A stretch of DNA of 15,182 bases from a virus (IMGVR_UViG_3300028482_000024:1-15182), one strand, 5' to 3'. Shown: positions 5,248 through 15,182, numbered from the stretch's first letter. The notes: generated by a model from the letters alone, not told the origin. Program-made: numbers and translations.

Positions 5248-5293
5248 GGGCTTGCTTGTTCGAAAGGGCAAGCAAGCCCTTATTTTTATTTTA
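5248..5293 (+). terminator. Rho-independent terminator downstream of the major capsid gene
   Basis: A perfect 11-bp stem pairs GGGCTTGCTTG (5248-5258) with CAAGCAAGCCC (5269-5279) around a 10-nt loop, followed by the T-rich tract TTATTTTTATTTTA. Confidence 0.8.
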
Positions 5294-5308: not shown

Positions 5309-5605
5309 ATGTTAGACAAGATTAAACTTCTGTTGAGTAGATTAGATGATGACACCGCAGATGAACTATTGAATACTCTCATTTCTATGTGTAAAGAAGA
5401 GGCTTACATTTATTGTAATTTATCTGAATACGATAAGAAATTAGATAACATTGTTGTGTGTATGGTTATTGAAAAATATAACCGCATGGGTAGCGAAGGC
5501 ACTACAAGCCAGAGTTCTTCCGGCGTGTCCGCTTCTTATGACAGTTTTTACAGCGATAAGATTGTGCGTATGCTAAATAAGTTTAGAAAGGTTAAGATGG
5601 TATGA
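5309..5605 (+). CDS. Head-tail connector / adaptor protein (gp6-like, SPP1 gp15 position)
   Basis: AAGGAGG at 5296-5302 lies 6 nt upstream of ATG 5309; the track start at 5237 lies inside the terminator hairpin. The N-terminus MLDKIKLLLSRLDDDTADELLNTLISMCKEEAYIYCN matches the connector-family pattern (LK..L.i..d.D.ll..li..a). It ends with TGA at 5603-5605, overlapping the next ATG. Confidence 0.65.
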   Translation: MLDKIKLLLSRLDDDTADELLNTLISMCKEEAYIYCNLSEYDKKLDNIVVCMVIEKYNRMGSEGTTSQSSSGVSASYDSFYSDKIVRMLNKFRKVKMV

Positions 5606-5919
5606 TTAAAAGAGATACAATTCAGAGATATTCCGCCGTCCTAACCAAGGACGCGATGGGCGGGGATGTTGTTGATTTAGTTCCCGCAGAAAATGTAAGA
5701 GCACATGTTTCCATCAACTCTACTATTGGAGAAATCACCCAGTATGGGTTGAAAGAAGAAATGGTGCTACATGTTATAACCGATATCGAGTTAGATATTT
5801 ATATCCATACTCGTTATATGTATTCCGGTCGCCTGTTTAGATTAGTGCGTCAAATTAAGTAGGGTAATGAATATTATTCTACACTAATTGAAGTAAATGG
5901 AGGTAATGTAAATGCTTAA
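5602..5919 (+). CDS. Head closure protein (SPP1 gp16-like), extended 19 codons through TAG 5860
   Basis: The start is in an ATGA overlap with the previous gene. The standard-code ORF stops at TAG 5860-5862. Read-through adds [18 protein letters not shown] and ends at TAA 5917-5919, overlapping the next start by 8 nt. Size and synteny fit a head-closure protein. Confidence 0.55.
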
Positions 5920-6241
5920 CTATAATGCTGATACTAATGCCATTTCTATGATTGCGAAAGACACCGGAGATTTCGTAATTTCACTTGATAATTACTTACT
6001 TGCCGAGGGCGATAAGGTGTTTTTCACCGTGAATGATGGGTTAGAAAAGGAGCCCGCACTCATCTCTATCGTCGTTAGTGAGTTTGTTGATAATAAAGCC
6101 GTTATTCATCTATCTGCGACTGATACTAATTTGGCTCCTGGTAATTATTATTACGACGTTCAGGTAAATACTGCGGACGGTCGTATTGATACTGTATTGG
6201 GTCCAGCCAAGTTTAAAATCGCGGGAGGGGTGAAGTATTAA
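5912..6241 (+). CDS. Hypothetical beta-sandwich / Ig-like protein (first gene of the fibre block)
   Basis: GGAGG at 5899-5903 lies 8 nt upstream of the ATG. The ORF is an intact 109 aa. The C-terminal pattern [28 protein letters not shown] resembles Ig-like domains of phage baseplate/decoration proteins; this assignment is from memory only. Confidence 0.55.
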
Positions 6242-6735
6242 TGGCTAAAATTGAAGTTTTAAATAATATTGACGCAGTTGTTGAAGATATCCCTGTTATT
6301 AACACCTCTATGAGTAATGCCATTTATCGTGGCCCCAAAGGAGATAAGGGCGAGCGTGGAGATGTCGGCCCACAAGGTCCCCAGGGTATTCAAGGCGAAA
6401 AAGGCCAGGATGGTTCTATTGGACCCCAAGGCCCCGCAGGCAAAGATGGTGCCCCAGGTCCTCGTGGAGAGCGAGGCATTCAAGGTGAGATGGGACCACA
6501 GGGACCCGAAGGCCCCCAGGGACCTATCGGCCCCAAAGGCGAAATTGGTCCTATCGGTCCCGCAGGTAAAGATGGTGTTGATGGGGCCCCCGGACAAAAA
6601 GGTGATAAGGGCGAGCCCGGGGTTTCGGGCGTATATGTTGGAACTACTGCTCCTACTGATGAGAGTGTCGTGGTGTGGATTGATATTGCTGGCACAGGAG
6701 AAGATTTGGAGCCCGCAGAGGGAGGTAGTTATTAA
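6241..6735 (+). CDS. Collagen-like (Gly-X-Y) fibre protein 1
   Basis: There are about 33 uninterrupted G-X-Y triplets ([21 protein letters not shown]...GEPGVSG). The start is coupled by TAATG at 6239-6243, and the gene ends ...EPAEGGSY with TAA at 6733-6735 overlapping the next ATG. Confidence 0.9.
6331..6630 (+). repeat. Gly-X-Y collagen triple-helix repeat tract (9-nt periodic GGN-NNN-NNN)
   Basis: Direct reading of the translation, residues ~31-130 of the 6241-6735 product. This GC-rich periodic tract also generates spurious long ORFs in other frames and on the minus strand. Confidence 0.9.
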
Positions 6736-7865
6736 TGGCATTAAAGACTGTTAATGAAGAGAGTTTAGTGGCTCTTGGCAATGCGATTAGAGAAAAGACT
6801 AATACGAATGATTTGTTAGTATTTCCTAATGGTATGATTGACGCGATTAATTCTATTACTGGTGCTATTGAGGTGCCTGAAATTGAAATTAGTGGTAATG
6901 GTAATTATGCTTGTGCTGGTTTATCAGGTGAATATATTAATTTATTTGGAGATAAAATTAAGACGCGTAATTTAAGTAATGCGTAGTATATGTTCTCCTA
7001 TTGTAGTGCCCCTAATATTCCATTTGAAATTAATTTTTCTTCTTCTGCGAATATGTAGTATATGTTTAGAGGTTGTAAAATGAGAAATGTCCCAGTCATA
7101 AATAATGCGAAGCCATCATCATTATATAATTTTTTTGCTGATTGTTATTATTTAAGATATATTCCAGATAATTTCGGTGAAAATTGGGATTGGAGTTCAG
7201 TTAGTAATTCTTCTGCGAGTGTTTCTTATTTTTTTATTAATTGTTTTTCATTGAGATAGGTGCCAGCATTTTTTAAATAGCATTGTTGTGGGAAGCAGTC
7301 TGCTTAGCAGTGTTTATATTATAGCACTTTTCAAAATTGTTATACATTAGATGAAATTGTTGATTTGCCGGTTTATACGGCTACCGCTCTTACATCAAAT
7401 GTGTTTAATAGCACAGTTTCATAGGCTTCTCGTATTAAAGATTTTACATTTGAAGTAAATACTGATGGCACTCCAAAAATCGCACAGTGGAAGGGATAGA
7501 CATTCAATATGACTTATAATGTAGGATATTTATCATCATCTTATGTGGATACACTTACGGGATATAATACTGGTTTAACCAAAGATACACGTATTACTAA
7601 TGACGAGAATTATCAATTATTAAAAGACAATCCTGATGCTTGGACTGTTGATATAAAATATTCTCGTTATAATCATGATAGTGCCGTCCGCACCATTAAC
7701 TCTCTGCCTGATACATCTGCCTATCTCGCGTCTGCGGGTGGCACGAATACGATTAAGTTCAAAGGTGCTTCTGGCAGTGCGACGGACGGAGGGGCCATTA
7801 ACACATTAACCGAAGAAGAAATCGCAGTAGCAACCGCAAAAGGTTGGACTGTAAGTTTAGCATAA
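6735..7865 (+). CDS. Putative fibre tip / adhesin with BspA/DUF285-type FxxC leucine-rich-like repeats, 7 in-frame TAG codons
   Basis: Track ORFs 6735-6986, 7062-7259 and 7509-7865 share a frame and are separated only by TAGs at 6984, 7056, 7257, 7278, 7305, 7422 and 7497. The joined 376-aa protein has repeated YMFSYC / YMFRGC / NFFADC / YFFINC / TFQNC motifs, with WDWSSVSN in between. The N-terminal LGNAIREKTNTNDL motif is shared with the 8532 gene. The C-terminus reads TEEEIAVATAKGWTVSLA. Ends with TAA. Confidence 0.7.
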
Positions 7866-7876
7866 GGAGGCTAACT

Positions 7877-8068
7877 ATGATTAGTAAAGATTTTATTTTA
7901 ACACGCTATGATGCCGATGTCGGCAAAGTATTTGATTGGAAAGAGCCTCGTTATATTGAGGATGAAAATGGAAATCAAATCCAAGAGCATCTATATGTAA
8001 AGACATTATTTATCGGAAATAATGACACTATTGACAACTACATTGAAATTGAGGAGGTAGTTGAATGA
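7877..8068 (+). CDS. Small hypothetical protein (63 aa), paralog of the 9762-9932 product
   Basis: AAGGAGG at 7865-7871 lies 5 nt upstream of ATG 7877. The shared motif is F/Y-DW..P...HLYVK.LF...ND.I-D/E-NYI. It ends with TGA at 8066-8068 in an ATGA overlap with the next gene. Confidence 0.55.
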
Positions 8069-8532
8069 GTGTTTTAAGATTTAAAGACCCTGCTACTAAT
8101 GAGTGGAAAGAAATTACTACTATTATGGGACCTGCGGGTCCCCAGGGTCCAAAAGGTGAAGATGGCGGTATTAAGTTTGAAGAACTGACCGACGCACAAA
8201 AAGAAGAATTACGTGGCCCACAGGGTATTCAAGGACCACAAGGTGAAACCGGTCCGCGAGGAGAGCAAGGTCCTGCCGGCCCCGAGGGCCCACAAGGCAT
8301 TCAGGGTCCAAAGGGCGACACAGGGGAACAAGGCCCGATTGGCCCAGAGGGTCCCGCAGGCCACACCCCCATAAAAGGCACGGATTATTTTACAGAGGCC
8401 GATAAAACTGAATTAGTGGCTGATGTTGAGGCCATTATGACTAATAAAGGATATCAAACCGAGGCGTAGGTCAATGCGTTGATTACTACTGCTCTTGGTA
8501 ATATTGGTGTAGCGGAGGAGGGTTCTTATTAA
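8065..8532 (+). CDS. Collagen-like (Gly-X-Y) fibre protein 2, extended 21 codons through TAG 8467
   Basis: GAGGAGG lies 9 nt upstream of the start. There are 4 + 17 G-X-Y triplets, then [18 protein letters not shown], a motif common in phage collagen-like fibres. Read-through of TAG 8467 adds [20 protein letters not shown], reproducing the ...EGGSY C-terminus and the TAATG junction of collagen-like protein 1. Confidence 0.85.
8128..8367 (+). repeat. Gly-X-Y collagen repeat tract (two blocks separated by a 17-residue interruption)
   Basis: Direct reading: [12 protein letters not shown], then the interruption [17 protein letters not shown], then [51 protein letters not shown]. Confidence 0.85.
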
Positions 8533-9116
8533 TGAGTAAAGTATTTATTGAAGAAGAAACCCTTATTGGGATTGGTAATGCCATTCGTGAAAAGAACGGC
8601 ACTACGGATTTGATTGCGACTACTGATATGGCTACTGCGATTAGTAATCTGGCTACTGGAAATGGTAGTGGTAATTGGAGTGCCCCTGTGGCTCTAACGT
8701 GGGCGGATACTCAAATTAAAAATGGTGTCAAAGATTCAACAACAACTACTATAACATTTGATTTTTCTAATAAAATTGAGGCTTATGACTATGATTGGAT
8801 GTTTTTAACGTGTTGGGCGGTCTCTGGCTCTACAAAATATACGGTTGCGGTTATGCCTCTAACAACAGTTTTCCCCGACAATGTTGATACAGCAGTTAAG
8901 TTAGATAATTGTGGTGTTTGGTATATGTAGTATGGTAAAAGTGGCTCTGCCACTAACGCTAACGTAAATGCGTTGATTCCTTACTCCTTATACATCGAAG
9001 CATATTATAACCCTGCGACTTGTGAATTAAAATTACGCGGTTCAGGAATGTCAGAAAATCAATTTAAAAATTATGTTGATACAGTAGGCCAGTTGGTTCA
9101 TCGTAAATCTACTTAA
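8532..9116 (+). CDS. Putative fibre tip protein 2 (shares the N-terminal GNAIREK docking-like motif with the 6735 gene), 1 in-frame TAG
   Basis: The start is coupled to the collagen-like gene 2 stop (TAATG). The N-terminus EEETLIGIGNAIREKNGTTDLIATTDMATAISNL parallels NEESLVALGNAIREKTNTNDLLVFPNGMIDAINSI. The standard-code ORF stops at TAG 8928; read-through adds 62 codons, ending at TAA 9114-9116 just ahead of the next RBS. Confidence 0.65.
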
Positions 9117-9132: not shown

Positions 9133-9750
9133 ATGGGATTATATTGTGAGTTTAGTATAGTTGATGATTTAGGTTATCCGGCCGACTTGTCAGGCGGAGA
9201 TGAAAAAATCGGTGAGGCTTCGGTTTTTGTGAATTATTCCGCGGCGGTAGAAGCATTCATCACGACCTTTTTAGAAGTCGCTAATGAGTTAGTCCCCGTC
9301 GATACTGGATTTTTATAGAGCACCATTGATGCGGGCGGAGGTAGTGATTGGTGCTGGTGTGAAGCGACCGCAGACTACGCTCAATATGTAGAATACGGCA
9401 CAATTAGCATGGACGCATAGCCCTACTTTGAACCGGCTCTTATGGCAGGGATTGAGGCTCTTGGAGGAGAAGCAGAAATAGCCATAAGCGAAGCGTAGGA
9501 TGAATTAGAAGCCATACTGTCGAGTCTGATGGAGGCATCAATGGCGATGGCCGGTAGTTCAGGTGGTATGGGCGGTATGTTCTCCATGGGCTGGGGTCAA
9601 TTCTTTATGGGATTGGCGATTTTCGCGGCGATAACAATCATATTATTTCCGATTTTGGTAAATGTATATGCGATAATAGACTCATTAAGTTATAAGAGTG
9701 ATAGTGGTGGAGGCGGAGGAGGAGGCCTCCCCGAGGTCATTATTACATAA
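9133..9750 (+). CDS. HK97 gp10-like tail completion / head-tail joining protein (SPP1 gp16.1 position) with a glycine-rich transmembrane C-terminal extension, 3 in-frame TAG codons
   Basis: AAGGAGG at 9118-9124 lies 8 nt upstream of ATG 9133; the track TTG at 9127 is too close to the RBS. Track ORFs 9127-9318 and 9529-9750 share a frame, joined through TAGs at 9316, 9418 and 9496. Family motifs span the TAGs: VPVDTGFL-x-STI and ADYAQYVEYGTISMDA-x-PYFEPAL. The C-terminus reads GSSGGMGGMFSMGWGQFFMGLAIFAAITIILFPILVNVYAII...SGGGGGGGL. Confidence 0.7.
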
Positions 9751-9761
9751 GGAGGATTAAA

Positions 9762-9932
9762 ATGGCGAGATTAAGTAATCGTATGATTAAATACGAAGCC
9801 CCCGCAGGTTTCGTATATGACTGGGCCACTCCAAAAGATGATGGCAGTCATTTATATGTAAAATATTTATTTTTATCTAAAAATGATAAAATTGAAAATT
9901 ATATCCTGGTAAAAGACCCAAAAGAGGTGTAA
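9762..9932 (+). CDS. Small hypothetical protein (56 aa), paralog of the 7877-8068 product; below the ORF-track size cut-off
   Basis: AAGGAGG at 9749-9755 lies 6 nt upstream of ATG 9762. The translation is MARLSNRMIKYEAPAGFVYDWATPKDDGSHLYVKYLFLSKNDKIENYILVKDPKEV. It ends with TAA at 9930-9932, 2 nt before the next ATG. Confidence 0.5.
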   Translation: MARLSNRMIKYEAPAGFVYDWATPKDDGSHLYVKYLFLSKNDKIENYILVKDPKEV

Positions 9933-11232: not shown

Positions 11233-11403
11233 ATGAATTATAATGAACTCTTAACCCAGTTATCGACAAAGATGTCATCTGCGTCAATTAAAGCAAGTGG
11301 CTCCCGCACTGCTAATAACGCAGTATCGACACCGAAGGAAGATAACACCTCTACAATGTTGAATAAGATTGGATTAGAAGTCCAAAGACAAGGAGGATAT
11401 TGA
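11233..11403 (+). CDS. 56-aa hypothetical protein occupying the slot where a tape measure gene is expected
   Basis: AAGGGGGA lies ~6 nt upstream of ATG 11233. The translation is MNYNELLTQLSTKMSSASIKASGSRTANNAVSTPKEDNTSTMLNKIGLEVQRQGGY. TGA at 11401-11403 overlaps the next ATG (TGATG). It is below the track size cut-off, and coding status is not proven. Confidence 0.4.
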   Translation: MNYNELLTQLSTKMSSASIKASGSRTANNAVSTPKEDNTSTMLNKIGLEVQRQGGY

Positions 11404-14400
11404 TGCTAATTAATGGAATTGAATTAAGTAAGTTGGGCGTTCAGTTGTTTGACCGCGTGCTGTATAGCAACTCAATTGATACCGCACAGGAATGGTTAGA
11501 CGGCGACATTCAGCCTACATTTATTCGCCAGCAAGACCGCTTCAAGACCATTGAATTACAGTTTTTAGTTTTGAGTGCCGATGAAGATGAGGCATTTAGA
11601 CGCATTAGTAAATTAACCGCTATGCTAAAAAAGGCTACTGTAAAGTTCGATGATTTAGGTCTTATGTTTGATGTTAGCATTACTAATGTGGGCGAACCAT
11701 CTCGTCTAAAAAATGGCAACTTCGTTGTATCTTACACATTATCCAGTGGATATGCGAAGGGTCAGCGAGAGATTTACACCACAAATGCTAATATGACTAA
11801 CTCATTTAAATTAACTGTCGCATATTACAAGAACTCAACAACCTTACTATCAAGCGAGACTGTTGTAATTCGTGCTTCTGCTTTTGACAAGGAAAATCTC
11901 GGATTGGCGGATTTGGGAATTGATGTAAATAAGCATCAACCTGAATACCATAATAATGGTGTCGCAACCAATCTAAATGGTTTAGACTTAACCTATGAGA
12001 ACTTACAAAGTTTAAAGGTGTTAATTATTAATTACGCACCTATTAGTTATAACCTATCTGTTGTCTATTATATGGATAACGGTCAAGGTCTATATAACGA
12101 AATACTGAACCGCACGGTTTCATTTACGCAAGAAGGTTTATCAAATTATCAGACTATCGGCCAGTTGGTCGGAGTCAAGGATTATCGTCCAGAAGGATAT
12201 AAAGGTAAAGTATCTTACACCGGAGCATTGGAACTGAATGAACTATTGGCTCATGCCCCGATTTCTGTATTCTACGACAAGATTGAAACAGAAATGAGTA
12301 AGAATATTTTCATTGCCTATAAAGCAGAAAATGATGACGGAGGATTTGACACTATCCAGTCCGTTATTATTAATGTTAGTGAGGCTCAATTTTATGATGG
12401 TCTAACTCTCAAAGACATTATCAGCGTTGATGGTTATAATCCCAATCCAAGTTATTATAATGCGGGTTATATTGATGGATTCGCCTCTAATGCTCTTATT
12501 ACTTATGAGAATATTGAGACCGCGTATAGTGTCATTTATACCAAGGCTGTAAATACTGTTTATGTAGAATACTACGCAGGAACTTATCCCGATTGGTATA
12601 GATTATCAACTGCTACATTACAGACAAAGCATTTGGATAAGTATGATAGAGCGTTCAACGTTTTAACTGATTTGAACCTGGACTTAAATAAATATCATAC
12701 TGCCCCATATAATGATGGTGCGTTATATAATCAAGACATTTATCAGACTTATGATGATGTGCTGAACGCAGGCGTTTTACAAGTTTATTACACCGCTATT
12801 GATTATCCAATCACTGTTAATTATTATGTGGGAGACTTAACCGCTACTCCCGTTAGCGAGACCGTTAATATTAACGCATTAATGTTCTTCGGCAATCCTA
12901 TTTTGAGTGATATTATTCCTATTTTGGCACATCGTCCAGAAGGATATCAATTTAGTGAGAACTTTTCTTATAATGGCGAGGTAAGTTTGGAGGCATTGAC
13001 CCAGGCTTCACCTATTATGGTCGTCTATGAAGAAATCGAAGTGATGCGTTCAAAGAATATCATCGTCCGTTATAAGCAGGAATTGGCATCCGCATACTCA
13101 ACAATTACAACTAATTTAATTACTGTTAATGAGGCTGACATAATTGGTGGTGTGCGTTTAAAGGATGTTATCGCACTGGACGCGTATCGTCCTGAATACT
13201 ATGACAGTGGCATTATTGATGGTGCGAGTTCAACTGCTCTTATGACATTTGACACTCTTGGAGCGTCTTATGATGTATTATACGTAGCAAAGAGTTATAC
13301 TACTCCCGTCCGCTACTATATTGACGAGATTGATGATTTACATTGGATTGGTAGTGCTTCAATTAGTTATCGAGTAATTGATTTTGAGACCACTACTACT
13401 CTATTTGATTTTGGACTTAACTTAAATGCTTATAAGCCCTCTTATGCGGGTGATGGCGTTTTACAATATACTGGTCCTGTTATTTTCTCCGCTCTCTTGG
13501 ACGCACAATCCATTGATGTATTGTATTTAACAGAGACTACTCCACCTGACGAAGATGGTATTGACTATCCTCACCGTTTCTTGTTCTTACAGCATAACGA
13601 TTTGGGTAGTTATGAATATCTACATCCTGAATGGACTATGAACCACGCATTTATTAACACAGGCGTGTCCGCAGAAGATATGTCCCGTTTAACCGTGGTT
13701 ATGGAGTGTGCCCGAGCAGATGAAAATGTCCCCATGTATCAAGTAAATGCGGGATATTCTTATTTATTTGGTAGCACAGGAACCCAGGGCTCATTCTTCA
13801 TGAGATATAATAACCAGACAATGTATGGCGAGGGCCTGACAGGCGTAGATACTTACGAAGCCAAGGCAGGTAATTACAGCAACGCATTAGTGCTGACCGC
13901 AGACAGTGCCGTAGGATTTAGTGAGAATACAGGTATTTATAGTTCTCCACAAGAGGGTTATAGCCGTGCCACTTTCACTTACAGCAACCTTTTGGCAACC
14001 GACGGGGCTCCGATGACTTATCCATTGTATTTGTTCGCAAATAATAATTATGGTAGTTATTCTAACGGCATCGCAGGTGTAGGTATTTATAGTTGTCGTA
14101 TTTATTATAACGACCAAATCATCCGTGATTTCATTCCAGTTCAATTCTACGATAAGATTGGCGATTTAGTCGCACCAAGCAACTGCTTATACGATAAGAT
14201 TACCAAGACCTTCTTCGAGGATGGCACAGGATTAAATAGTTTTAATATTCGTGATGATGAACGTTATGAGGATACAAATCTACAACATAAAATCGGACAT
14301 TGTTATGTCAATTATTATAAGGGTCTCGACTTTATGAAGACTGTCGTCGTGTATTTCCGTGGCGATGAGTTTGACGATGGCGAGTTCGACCTTTATGAGC

Positions 14401-15182
14401 GTTTCGCAGTAGATGCGAATCAGCCACAATATACTTTCTCCGGCGAAATTAAAAATGTTAATAATATTAATGTATCTTTTGATGGATTAAATAATAAAAC
14501 ATTTGAGGTATATTATGAGCCGATTGAGACTCAAATCACTGTTAATTACTATAAGGTTGAAGACAATGGAGATAAAACCGTATTAGCAAGTGAAATTATC
14601 GCATTGAAGGAGAAGGATTTCTATCAGGTTCCTACTTTTGGAGATTTAGTTCGTCTAAATAAATATAAGCCTGATGGTTATGAAACTAACTTTAAATATA
14701 CAGGTAGCAAGGTGTCTTTGGCTCGTGTTGTTGAGGGTTCGCCTTATAACATCGAATACACCAAAATGACCGAGGACAAAATCCCATATTCTACTACTAT
14801 TAAATACATCAAAAAAGTATTTGGTGTGCGTGAATATGAGACTATCGGCACCAAGATTTTAACATTCGACCAGAGCGATTTCCGCGATGGTGAATACATT
14901 GATTTTTACATTGATAAAAATCTGATGAAACCTGAAAAATATTACGTGGATGGCACCACTTATCAATGGTATGAAATGGATGAGCGGTTAGATAAACCTG
15001 AAAATCTAAAAGAGTCTTACACCATTATGTATTCTCCTGAACGCCAATATTTAGATGTAAATTACTACACTGATGAGGTTGATGAGGAGAACTACATCGC
15101 AGGTATGACTTGGAGCCTGGCGATTGATGAATTAGACCCTCGCTTAACTTATAGCATCGTTGATATCTTCCCTAACGAGTAT
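11403..15182 (+). CDS. Giant distal-tail protein: Dit-like N-terminal domain followed by tandem ~83-aa MucBP-like beta repeats and a central jelly-roll-like domain; 3' end beyond the window
   Basis: AAGGAGGA lies 6 nt upstream of ATG 11403. Hand translation gave 1260 codons with no stop of any kind through the window edge; the ORF is absent from the track, presumably because it has no stop in the window. The N-terminus MLINGIELSKLGVQLFD...FDDLGLMFDVSITNVGEPSRLKNGNFVVSYTLSSGYAKG fits the siphovirus distal tail protein pattern. Repeats carry V.YY ... Y-K/R-P-E/D-GY ... V.Y motifs. Confidence 0.85.
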   Translation, partial: MLINGIELSKLGVQLFDRVLYSNSIDTAQEWLDGDIQPTFIRQQDRFKTIELQFLVLSADEDEAFRRISKLTAMLKKATVKFDDLGLMFDVSITNVGEPSRLKNGNFVVSYTLSSGYAKGQREIYTTNANMTNSFKLTVAYYKNSTTLLSSETVVIRASAFDKENLGLADLGIDVNKHQPEYHNNGVATNLNGLDLTYENLQSLKVLIINYAPISYNLSVVYYMDNGQGLYNEILNRTVSFTQEGLSNYQTIGQLVGVKDYRPEGYKGKVSYTGALELNELLAHAPISVFYDKIETEMSKNIFIAYKAENDDGGFDTIQSVIINVSEAQFYDGLTLKDIISVDGYNPNPSYYNAGYIDGFASNALITYENIETAYSVIYTKAVNTVYVEYYAGTYPDWYRLSTATLQTKHLDKYDRAFNVLTDLNLDLNKYHTAPYNDGALYNQDIYQTYDDVLNAGVLQVYYTAIDYPITVNYYVGDLTATPVSETVNINALMFFGNPILSDIIPILAHRPEGYQFSENFSYNGEVSLEALTQASPIMVVYEEIEVMRSKNIIVRYKQELASAYSTITTNLITVNEADIIGGVRLKDVIALDAYRPEYYDSGIIDGASSTALMTFDTLGASYDVLYVAKSYTTPVRYYIDEIDDLHWIGSASISYRVIDFETTTTLFDFGLNLNAYKPSYAGDGVLQYTGPVIFSALLDAQSIDVLYLTETTPPDEDGIDYPHRFLFLQHNDLGSYEYLHPEWTMNHAFINTGVSAEDMSRLTVVMECARADENVPMYQVNAGYSYLFGSTGTQGSFFMRYNNQTMYGEGLTGVDTYEAKAGNYSNALVLTADSAVGFSENTGIYSSPQEGYSRATFTYSNLLATDGAPMTYPLYLFANNNYGSYSNGIAGVGIYSCRIYYNDQIIRDFIPVQFYDKIGDLVAPSNCLYDKITKTFFEDGTGLNSFNIRDDERYEDTNLQHKIGHCYVNYYKGLDFMKTVVVYFRGDEFDDGEFDLYERFAVDANQPQYTFSGEIKNVNNINVSFDGLNNKTFEVYYEPIETQITVNYYKVEDNGDKTVLASEIIALKEKDFYQVPTFGDLVRLNKYKPDGYETNFKYTGSKVSLARVVEGSPYNIEYTKMTEDKIPYSTTIKYIKKVFGVREYETIGTKILTFDQSDFRDGEYIDFYIDKNLMKPEKYYVDGTTYQWYEMDERLDKPENLKESYTIMYSPERQYLDVNYYTDEVDEENYIAGMTWSLAIDELDPRLTYSIVDIFPNEY
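11802..13556 (+). repeat. Seven tandem divergent ~83-aa protein-domain repeats, including a higher-order ~252-aa (756-nt) duplication (about 12045-12800 vs 12801-13556)
   Basis: Units begin FKLTVAYYKN, YNLSVVYYMD, SKNIFIAYKAE, NTVYVEYYAG, YPITVNYYVG, SKNIIVRYKQE and YTTPVRYYID. Units 2-4 align in order with units 5-7, for example RPEGYKGKVSYTG...SKNIFIAYK vs RPEGYQFSENFSYNG...SKNIIVRYK. Confidence 0.7.
14283..15182 (+). repeat. Second array of the same ~80-aa repeat type (at least 3.5 units, continuing past the window)
   Basis: Units begin GHCYVNYYKG, TQITVNYYKVED (with NKYKPDGYETNFKYTG), YSTTIKYIKK and YLDVNYYTDE. Confidence 0.65.

Follow-up and report, generated by a model that had tools for sequence, protein, structure and literature searches.

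We analyzed a 15,182-nucleotide (nt) stretch of DNA from a small gut phage (IMGVR_UViG_3300028482_000024:1-15182; hereafter the window), in which the region 5912–9116 probably encodes two virion-borne, two-component adhesion (receptor-binding) fibres, each consisting of a collagen-like stalk and a separate tip protein. The region comprises six tightly packed genes, g5912, colA, tipA, smA, colB and tipB (Table 1). The evidence lies in the gene structure, a conserved joint between stalk and tip, a sharp exchange boundary behind this joint, the diversity of the tips, the mobility of the cassette and the modelled folds of TipA and g5912; from these we infer trimer formation, docking of the tip on the stalk, incorporation into the virion, the adhesin function and the roles of g5912 and SmA.

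The gene structure depends on the genetic code. Under the standard bacterial code the window looks fragmented, and every break inside the obvious genes and the fibre region is a TAG. In-frame TAGs occur in terL (7), portal, the gp7-like minor head protein gene (5), g5602 (1), tipA (7), colB (1) and tipB (1), and there are none in the scaffold, major capsid protein (MCP), g5912, colA, smA, smB, tail terminator and major tail protein genes or, over its first 1,260 codons, in the giant gene that closes the window. At conserved positions, TAG-free homologues have glutamine where the window has TAG, for example in 18 of 19 at TipA Q255, in 10 of 15 at portal position 31 and in 4 of 5 at g5602 position 87. 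These alignments indicate that TAG is a glutamine codon in the window. A tRNA gene was found in none of six sampled loci of the window's clade (L017–L019, L023, L024 and L031), which jointly cover nearly the whole ~26-kb genome; a suppressor may come from the host, a helper phage or an unsampled part. Reading TAG as sense yields a compact co-directional late operon, and the same genes are called in the public annotation of an identical 25,994-bp contig. With this reading, all features of the initial annotation lie where it had placed them; additionally, smA, which it had missed, is found inside the region.

Both stalk genes score above the Pfam Collagen (PF01391) gathering threshold of 27.2 bits, confirming their annotation as collagen-like: ColA with E 3.9e-18 and 65.4 bits, and ColB with E 2.2e-10 and 40.6 bits. 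The two stalks end alike (...PAEGGSY in ColA and ...VAEEGSY in ColB), and the octamer TATTAATG lies at both stalk/tip junctions, at 6730 and 8527, as had been described. It also lies at 6236, the g5912/colA junction, where the stop of g5912 overlaps the start of colA and which the description had not included; the window contains 6 copies against 1.5 expected, a number reached in 1 of 200 shuffles. In both pairs the stalk stop overlaps the ATG of the tip gene at TAATG (8530–8534 for colB/tipB). The shared start of the two tips is likewise confirmed, with 13 of 23 residues identical between TipA and TipB (BLASTP, E 1e-6); the similarity is restricted to the N-terminal ~25–43 residues, and BLASTP detected none outside them.

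The region had been called a duplicated cassette. Two parallel stalk/tip units are indeed present; a recent duplication is not supported, since the stalk N-termini belong to two different classes and the tips are unrelated beyond the joint. Recent tandem duplication was rejected because no long DNA repeat links the units; what they have in common is the similarity of collagen codons and a junction of 23 nt with 78% identity. The two-fibre layout is old and common to the whole ~26-kb clade. We also considered a stalk–tip fusion made by frameshifting, which is disfavoured: each tip has its own ATG overlapping the stalk stop, so that translational coupling is the simpler reading, and the tip frames are open for just 51 and 30 nt 5′ of their ATGs.

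Table 1 Features of the fibre region and its flanks, in window coordinates
Feature	Position	Strand	Description
g5912	5912..6241	+	109 aa, immunoglobulin (Ig)-like β-sandwich; conserved partner of type-A stalks
colA (stalk 1)	6241..6735	+	164 aa, type-A N-terminus
tipA	6735..7865	+	376 aa; docking motif, repeat domain and conserved C-terminal ~85 aa
tipA docking motif, then linker	6735..6863	+	residues 1–43, two predicted helices
smA	7877..8068	+	63 aa; stop overlaps colB start (ATGA)
colB (stalk 2)	8065..8532	+	155 aa, type-B N-terminus, C-terminal helix block
tipB	8532..9116	+	194 aa; docking motif (1–43), Gly-rich linker, rare variable C-terminal domain
Joint block across colB/tipB boundary	8412..8651	+	last ~40 stalk codons and first ~40 tip codons
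g5602 (upstream flank)	5602..5919	+	head-closure/stopper by position only
g9133 (downstream flank)	9133..9750	+	HK97-gp10-like/Neck1, with C-terminal extension
smB	9762..9932	+	56-aa smA paralogue; in this clade always 3′ of g9133

We compared the window with thirty-two related loci from IMG/VR, ENA assemblies, metagenome-assembled genomes (MAGs) and one GenBank record. A scan of bacterial genomes returned only whole-phage contigs of 4–24 kb, in Clostridia, Wujia, Anaeroplasma and Bacteroidales MAGs, and no bacterial flanks on them. Related phages share the N-terminal motif of the tips and differ in their C-terminal domains, which strongly supports the modular stalk plus exchangeable tip proposed in the initial annotation; tips do swap behind a conserved N-terminal motif. 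Specifically, among 51 TipB-type proteins there are 2–3 full-length relatives, while the other 48 share only the N-terminal 22–54% of the sequence. After a near-identical N-terminus of ~45 aa and a Gly linker, the C-terminal parts of these 51 proteins fall into at least 12 unrelated clusters.

The exchange boundary is sharp in the DNA. Between the window and loci L022 and L023, nucleotide identity is 83–100% from about −120 to +119 of the tipB ATG, which is the joint block of Table 1, and 90–100% over some 30 stalk and 40 tip codons; past +119, precisely at the Gly linker, it falls to 57–43% over the next 30 nt and then to a random ~13–50%. The joint is still 87–100% identical in L024, whose backbone is more diverged, and this suggests gene conversion or strong constraint. 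Members of the clade are 87–98% identical in the head genes, g5912, SmA and the giant tail protein; in the same members ColA is 46–55% identical, TipA is 36–38% identical or replaced, and TipB is kept only at its N-terminus. By these identities the fibre genes form a hypervariable island, the signature of host-recognition modules.

Beyond the clade, the joint recurs on very different stalks. The docking motif occupies residues 1–44 in every protein that carries it, and the gene 5′ of such a protein, where visible, encodes a fibre-like stalk, except for L012, in which a second tip follows the first. The stalks of 206–781 aa are either collagenous, with up to 72 triplets, or wholly non-collagenous, with fibre repeats (206, 574 and 665 aa), and the conserved C-terminal peptide ends both kinds alike. 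Non-collagen stalks of relatives matched only PHROGs of unknown function, and a PDB sequence search with a long stalk gave nothing significant.

The stalk C-terminus and the tip N-terminus co-vary by class. In class I, a stalk ending ...IGVAEEG[ASV]Y is linked through a TAATG overlap to a tip with the docking motif. In class II, the stalk ends ...LGVIENG[ST]Y, the overlap is 14–20 nt and the tip starts MAL..KL..IG.AIR.KTG. In class III (L005–L009), the stalk ends ...TLPKY.GGVE, the overlap is again TAATG and the next gene opens MADVTLTYKGS, without the docking (AIR.K) motif. In class III (for example L005:2671-4892), the TipA homologue starts MADVTLTYKGSTIAEMNASG. At L012:8852-10031, two different docking-motif tips stand in tandem behind one collagen stalk, an arrangement suggesting that a stalk type may bear either tip or a mixture of both. 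The joint is also present in MT835537, a human-gut siphophage with the standard code, on a 602-aa pectate-lyase/β-helix protein that ends ...AAIGAAMEASY; its gene overlaps the start codon of the next, which encodes 203 aa and begins ...LSAIADAIRSKTGG. The occurrence of the joint on this tailspike-like protein ties the module to bona fide host-interaction fibres. In the literature we found nothing on this ~26-kb clade or this joint.

In fibre 1, g5912 is a putative anchor or adaptor. Its AlphaFold2 model is all-β (predicted local distance difference test, pLDDT, 86), and Foldseek returned ~1,800 matches to a generic Ig fold, which are non-discriminating. The match to PF23148, the Gp77 'fiber-tail adaptor' family, is below the 27-bit gathering threshold (E 0.017, 16.1 bits), and that to phrog_1084 is weak; no BppU-specific match was seen, and a PDB sequence search with the g5912 profile gave nothing significant. 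A match to the Ig domain of the R4C adaptor was judged non-specific. We collected 299 homologues of g5912; among the 120 listed, all have 109 aa and are 69–100% identical. The gene moves along with the stalk to other operon positions (L011 and L012) and is therefore part of the fibre system, not of the connector. The type-A N-terminal class of ColA is common to the g5912-linked stalks of L017, L018, L022, L023 and L031. ColA contains 34 uninterrupted G-X-Y triplets, corresponding to ~29 nm if triple-helical, and just ~30 non-collagen residues at its C-terminus.

TipA matches the docking motif at residues 1–43 in a hidden Markov model search. Its AlphaFold2 model (pLDDT 92, predicted template modelling score 0.83) consists of N-terminal helices, a repeat domain and a C-terminal α/β domain, the helices at residues 8–22 and 32–40 being of lower confidence (pLDDT 64–77). 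Foldseek matched the first ~45 residues to 42–52-residue N-terminal segments of other uncultured siphophage proteins, at 35–45% identity. The repeat domain carries F..C-type repeats, and Foldseek against BFVD aligned the model with BspA-family leucine-rich repeat (LRR) surface proteins and with the 26-residue-repeat (DUF285) family at E 1e-7 to 4e-4. PF03382 or PF13306 is matched by two homologues, P0051 and P0291, and by the second of the L031 tips. The repeat domain is a candidate BspA/DUF285-like LRR type. The TipA family exceeds 5,253 proteins, with PF03382 in one homologue; they are unannotated and typically encoded on 25–26-kb contigs; its invariant residues cluster at 293–372, and the C-terminal ~85 residues are the most conserved.

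Of 25 loci with a visible tipA homologue, 22 have the small gene smA 3′ of it; the exceptions are L017, L027 and L028. SmA and SmB are paralogues (39% identity, E 3e-13), SmA being tied to TipA and SmB to the Neck1 gene. An exhaustive profile search brought together ~100 representatives of the SmA/SmB family, nearly all of them stand-alone proteins of 50–95 aa and unannotated.

In fibre 2, ColB has 5+17 G-X-Y triplets and a type-B N-terminus with the consensus M.[VI]L[KR].[KR]......W..I..I.G. Its C-terminal block is kept on both the collagenous and the non-collagenous stalks of relatives.

We propose that in each fibre a presumably trimeric collagen-like stalk presents three C-terminal peptides, which would dock the N-termini of three tip subunits. 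The stalk half of the joint would be the C-terminal ~30 residues, ending ...AE(E/G)GSY-COOH, and the tip half an N-terminal helix-loop-helix of ~43 residues, followed by a flexible Gly linker that would free the tip domains. The TAATG stop/start overlap would couple the translation of stalk and tip. Fibre 1 would consist of g5912 as Ig-like anchor or adaptor, the ~29 nm ColA stalk and TipA, with the LRR domain as variable binding surface; SmA would pair with TipA, probably through the conserved C-terminal domain of TipA, and may act as chaperone or cap. Fibre 2 would combine ColB with the small TipB domain, replaced wholesale between strains. The joint block across the gene boundary may double as a (left) homology arm, with recombination replacing everything distal to the Gly linker, so that the tips of close relatives would have nothing in common beyond the joint. 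With unlike tips on its two fibres, the phage would have two binding specificities.

Several points weigh against two-component adhesion fibres on the virion. The co-variation of stalk end and tip start could reflect DNA linkage alone; as the two halves of the joint are adjacent on the DNA, it is suggestive of docking and no proof. For TipA, the BFVD matches have low TM-scores (0.27–0.38), Foldseek against PDB gave none with E<1 and solely non-significant LRR proteins, a PDB sequence search with the TipA profile gave nothing significant, and no Pfam family matched at E<=0.1, including PF03382 and PF13306. TipB showed no Pfam, PHROG, NCBIfam or PDB match and no informative homologue or structure. 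For SmA and SmB, the exhaustive profile search and a PDB sequence search yielded no informative homologue, fusion or structure, and TipA, TipB, SmA and SmB are all without a match in Pfam, PHROG or NCBIfam. Finally, no cultured or annotated relative emerged when the whole window (megablast) and TipA (tblastn) were compared with 50,697 phage records; the MCP is only ~25% identical to the capsid proteins of Staphylococcus, Streptococcus and Enterococcus phages.

Where on the particle the fibres sit is a separate question. As the initial annotation had noted, the region interrupts the usual synteny: L032 has the adaptor, a 95-aa gene in the head-closure place and the HK97-gp10-like gene with nothing between, therefore the arrangement of the window is an insertion. 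The 95-aa gene, the L032 equivalent of g5602, is directly 5′ of the HK97-gp10-like gene. The cassette is mobile, with at least five operon positions among relatives. It lies between terL and portal in L001–L009, L013/L014, L025, L029 and L032; before the scaffold gene in L011 (after the gp7-like gene) and L026 (upstream side outside the visible sequence); between adaptor and head-closure genes in L012; between head-closure and Neck1 genes in the window's ~26-kb clade, with both flanks visible in L017–L020, L022–L024 and L031; and in L028 it closes the structural block. The type-B N-terminus of the stalk (MSVLRFK..W..I..I.G) occurs in terL|portal and head-closure|Neck1 cassettes alike, and so the presumed anchoring end is unchanged by gene position. 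In MT835537 the fibre pair follows a 995-aa gene of tape-measure size and DUF6711, DUF859/Gp10_C and CBM5_12 genes and directly precedes the holin and amidase genes, which is a canonical tail-fibre (distal-tail) position. The earlier inference that the position suggests neck/collar or head fibres, not baseplate fibres, is not supported, given these three observations. Cassette mobility, the constant stalk N-terminus and MT835537 together make gene position no guide to the attachment site.

Fibres on the connector, as neck/collar whiskers or head fibres comparable to T4 fibritin, the lactococcal neck passage structure (NPS) or the head fibres of phi29, are in our view doubtful though the most serious of the alternatives. 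In this clade the cassette always lies between g5602 and g9133, and the latter, the Neck1 gene, is itself hypervariable, has an odd C-terminal extension and is accompanied by the gene for the SmA paralogue SmB; at the same time, relatives carry the cassette at no fewer than four other operon positions, the type-B stalk N-terminus is of the same class at terL|portal and head-closure|Neck1, and the joint occupies the canonical tail-fibre position in MT835537. The protein g5912 is a small Ig-like sandwich, and sandwiches of Ig-like or BppU-like type hold the P335 NPS to the collar (PMC9692632) and decorate the R4C adaptor (PMC10276861), but the fold match of g5912 is generic, with ~1,800 Ig matches. 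The clade has an apparent 56-aa remnant of a tape measure; if attached to the neck, fibres ~29 nm long could then extend beyond the end of the tail. In the precedent itself, the known NPS gene lies 3′ of the receptor-binding-protein gene and not among the neck genes (PMC9692632); gene position and virion position are thus decoupled even there. Attachment to the neck is less likely than not, and the distal tail or giant Dit-like protein and the capsid share the remainder.

Alternatively, the tips might be mainly Tfa-like assembly factors that nucleate stalk trimerisation and are absent from, or dispensable in, the mature fibre. The tip gene is directly 3′ of the stalk gene and translationally coupled to it, as in the fibre/Tfa pairs of Mu, P2 and lambda; collagen helices depend on a nucleus for trimerisation, and the C-terminal part of ColA outside the collagen amounts to just ~30 residues; and two tips follow one stalk in L012. 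A chaperone, however, needs neither at least 12 unrelated C-terminal domains of 100–190 aa nor a 330-aa LRR adhesin-like domain, most of the variation lies beyond the joint, the pattern to be expected of receptor-binding parts, and no Pfam Caudo_TAP or Tfa match was found, which makes this role for the tips improbable. A still weaker case can be made for non-virion, moron-like cargo, in which the genes would encode cell-surface collagen-like or BspA-like adhesins (cf. Scl/BclA and BspA) that alter the host during infection or lysogeny. The collagen regions resemble Scl/Lcl adhesins at the repeat level, below cut-off, BspA-type LRR proteins are bacterial surface adhesins and the cassette behaves as a mobile unit. 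Yet the proteins have no signal peptide, LPXTG or other anchor and the genes no promoter or terminator of their own; they are tightly coupled in translation within the late structural operon, contain in-frame TAGs like other late genes, and the joint is found on a tailspike-like protein adjoining baseplate genes. We therefore consider moron-like cargo very improbable. In searches of the cassette, promoter or terminator signals did not rise above background, the cassette being embedded in the late operon, and no cassette protein showed a signal peptide, LPXTG or other anchor.

Virion-borne two-component fibres have several functional counterparts, the closest by analogy being the T2/S16-type gp37/gp38, the fibre/Tfa pairs, BppU/BppL of TP901-1 and the P335 NPS. 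In T2, T6 and S16, gp38 is a separate tip adhesin on the gp37 long tail fibre, is encoded by the next gene and sets the host range. As the conserved joint and its sharp boundary suggest, the present fibres would likewise have a shaft with a next-gene adhesin, a conserved N-terminal attachment, Gly-rich segments and variable binding parts. In contrast to gp37/gp38, the present shaft is collagen-like or otherwise variable, whole C-terminal domains and not loops within one fold are replaced, the phage is a Firmicutes-type siphophage, and neither sequence nor fold showed a relationship, Pfam, PHROGs and PDB sequence searches giving no gp38 match. The Tfa (Caudo_TAP) proteins of Mu, P2 and lambda bind the fibre C-terminus through a conserved N-terminal part and have a variable C-terminal part. 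They resemble the present pairs in being two adjacent co-expressed genes, the downstream protein being conserved N-terminally and variable C-terminally; unlike them, our tips have no Caudo_TAP match, exceed them greatly in size and diversity, one being a putative LRR adhesin, and are not associated with an invertible segment. T4 fibritin (Wac) is a coiled coil with a foldon that serves mainly in tail-fibre assembly and sensing, and its gene adjoins neck genes 13/14. Its trimeric build and small C-terminal trimerisation element would be shared by the present fibres, and its gene likewise lies beside neck genes, but it has no separate tip protein and no homology.

Collagen repeats flank the variable receptor-binding-protein region in S. 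thermophilus phages, and SPP1 gp12 is a tip-less head decoration. Such repeats are known in phage structural proteins, including SPP1 gp12 and those of S. thermophilus phages and E. coli prophage tail fibres (PMC3368898, PMC7533335). There, as presumably here, G-X-Y repeats serve as trimeric spacers beside recombination-prone variable regions; in those proteins collagen and binding domain are on one polypeptide, whereas the exchange point here is a non-collagen, two-gene joint. The P335 NPS is a single chain of ~700 aa with a BppU-like β-sandwich anchor, a trimeric coiled-coil stalk and a carbohydrate-binding module, encoded after the receptor-binding-protein gene, and BppL of TP901-1 is a separate polypeptide hung on BppU (PMC9692632). 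Like these trimeric accessory adhesion devices of Gram-positive siphophages, whose exchangeable heads bind carbohydrate, the fibres described here would have a sandwich anchor, an elongated stalk and exchangeable heads. They differ from the NPS in a collagen-like stalk and in having anchor (g5912), stalk and tip as separate genes, and the searches showed no similarity in sequence. TipA resembles BspA, DUF285 (PF03382) and LRR_5 (PF13306) proteins in its F..C-type repeats and in the match of its model to phage-encoded BspA-family LRR proteins; it differs in being below every Pfam threshold and in having a conserved C-terminal domain and a phage-specific docking motif. Other phages, then, already offer examples of collagen spacers and of fibres made by two genes with an exchangeable adhesin; new are the conserved two-gene joint, the variety of stalks on which it occurs, the size of the TipA family and the positional mobility of the cassette.

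The late operon around the cassette has the order terL, portal, a 129-aa gene, gp7-like minor head protein, scaffold, MCP, g5309 and g5602, then the 3.2-kb region, and then g9133, smB, tail terminator, major tail protein, a chaperone-like gene, a 56-aa open reading frame (ORF) and the giant gene. The adaptor g5309, directly 5′ of g5602, matches PF05135, and g5602 itself has no family match in Pfam, PHROG or NCBIfam. The putative identity of g9133 derives from concurring matches to PF04883 (E 0.015, 16.7 bits; cut-off 21.4) and TIGR01725 (E 5e-5, 23.9 bits; cut-off 30.8), both sub-threshold, and to phrog_5 (E 3e-9), and from the same position as in L032. Its C-terminal extension contains a hydrophobic, transmembrane-like stretch of ~26 residues and a Gly7 run, and within the clade g9133 is only 37–64% identical, on par with the fibre genes. 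A separate transmembrane protein of 72–80 aa is encoded just 5′ of the Neck1 gene in L016, L017 and L024, and the L016 copy has a weak, sub-threshold XhlA match.

In the head part of the operon, the 129-aa protein (2447–2836, between the portal and gp7-like genes) has an N-terminal hydrophobic segment and matches PHROG 'holin' families (phrog_13712, E 3e-29), an odd location for a putative lysis gene. A strong hairpin with a 14-bp stem and a T-run behind it at 5248–5279, directly 3′ of the major capsid gene and 5′ of the adaptor gene, may be an attenuator that sets the capsid-to-connector stoichiometry. At the tail end, the apparent tape measure is the 56-aa ORF (11233–11403), whose end ...LNKIGLEVQRQGGY matches that of the 986-aa tape measure of L012 (...MNKLGLVLQRA). 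The giant gene (11403–15182) runs past the window end; the corresponding Dit has 238 aa in L012 and reaches ~2,930–2,960 aa in the four clade genomes with reported full length, and the C-terminal part of the giant protein has a PF06605 Prophage_tail match in L031. For both features the region compared was L012:12219-15917. From sequence, the 56-aa tape measure and the giant gene predict a siphophage that has almost no tail but a very large distal device.

A bolder proposal, which we hold to be unlikely, is that the joint is a widespread, hitherto undescribed plug-and-socket of gut Firmicutes phages, fitting any stalk to any tip, and that the g5912-anchored fibres of this clade are neck-attached and the primary determinants of host range. 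If true, a stalk, whether collagen, repeat fibre or β-helix depolymerase, would carry any of dozens of tips as a position-independent cassette, and the fibres of an almost tail-less siphophage would function like those of a podovirus. The operon position of fibre genes is a poor guide to their location on the particle, which calls for caution. In uncultured gut phages, no part is harder to predict than host recognition. The joint has a recognisable signature, a stalk end ...GYQT.AQV..LI..AL..IGVAEEG.Y followed by a next gene starting M.KVFIEE.TL..IG.AIR.K.G, and marks putative receptor-binding fibres as well as the precise point at which their exchangeable tips begin. The signature would allow thousands of unannotated genes to be labelled and tip repertoires to be compared across viromes, and would offer a natural splice point for host-range engineering.

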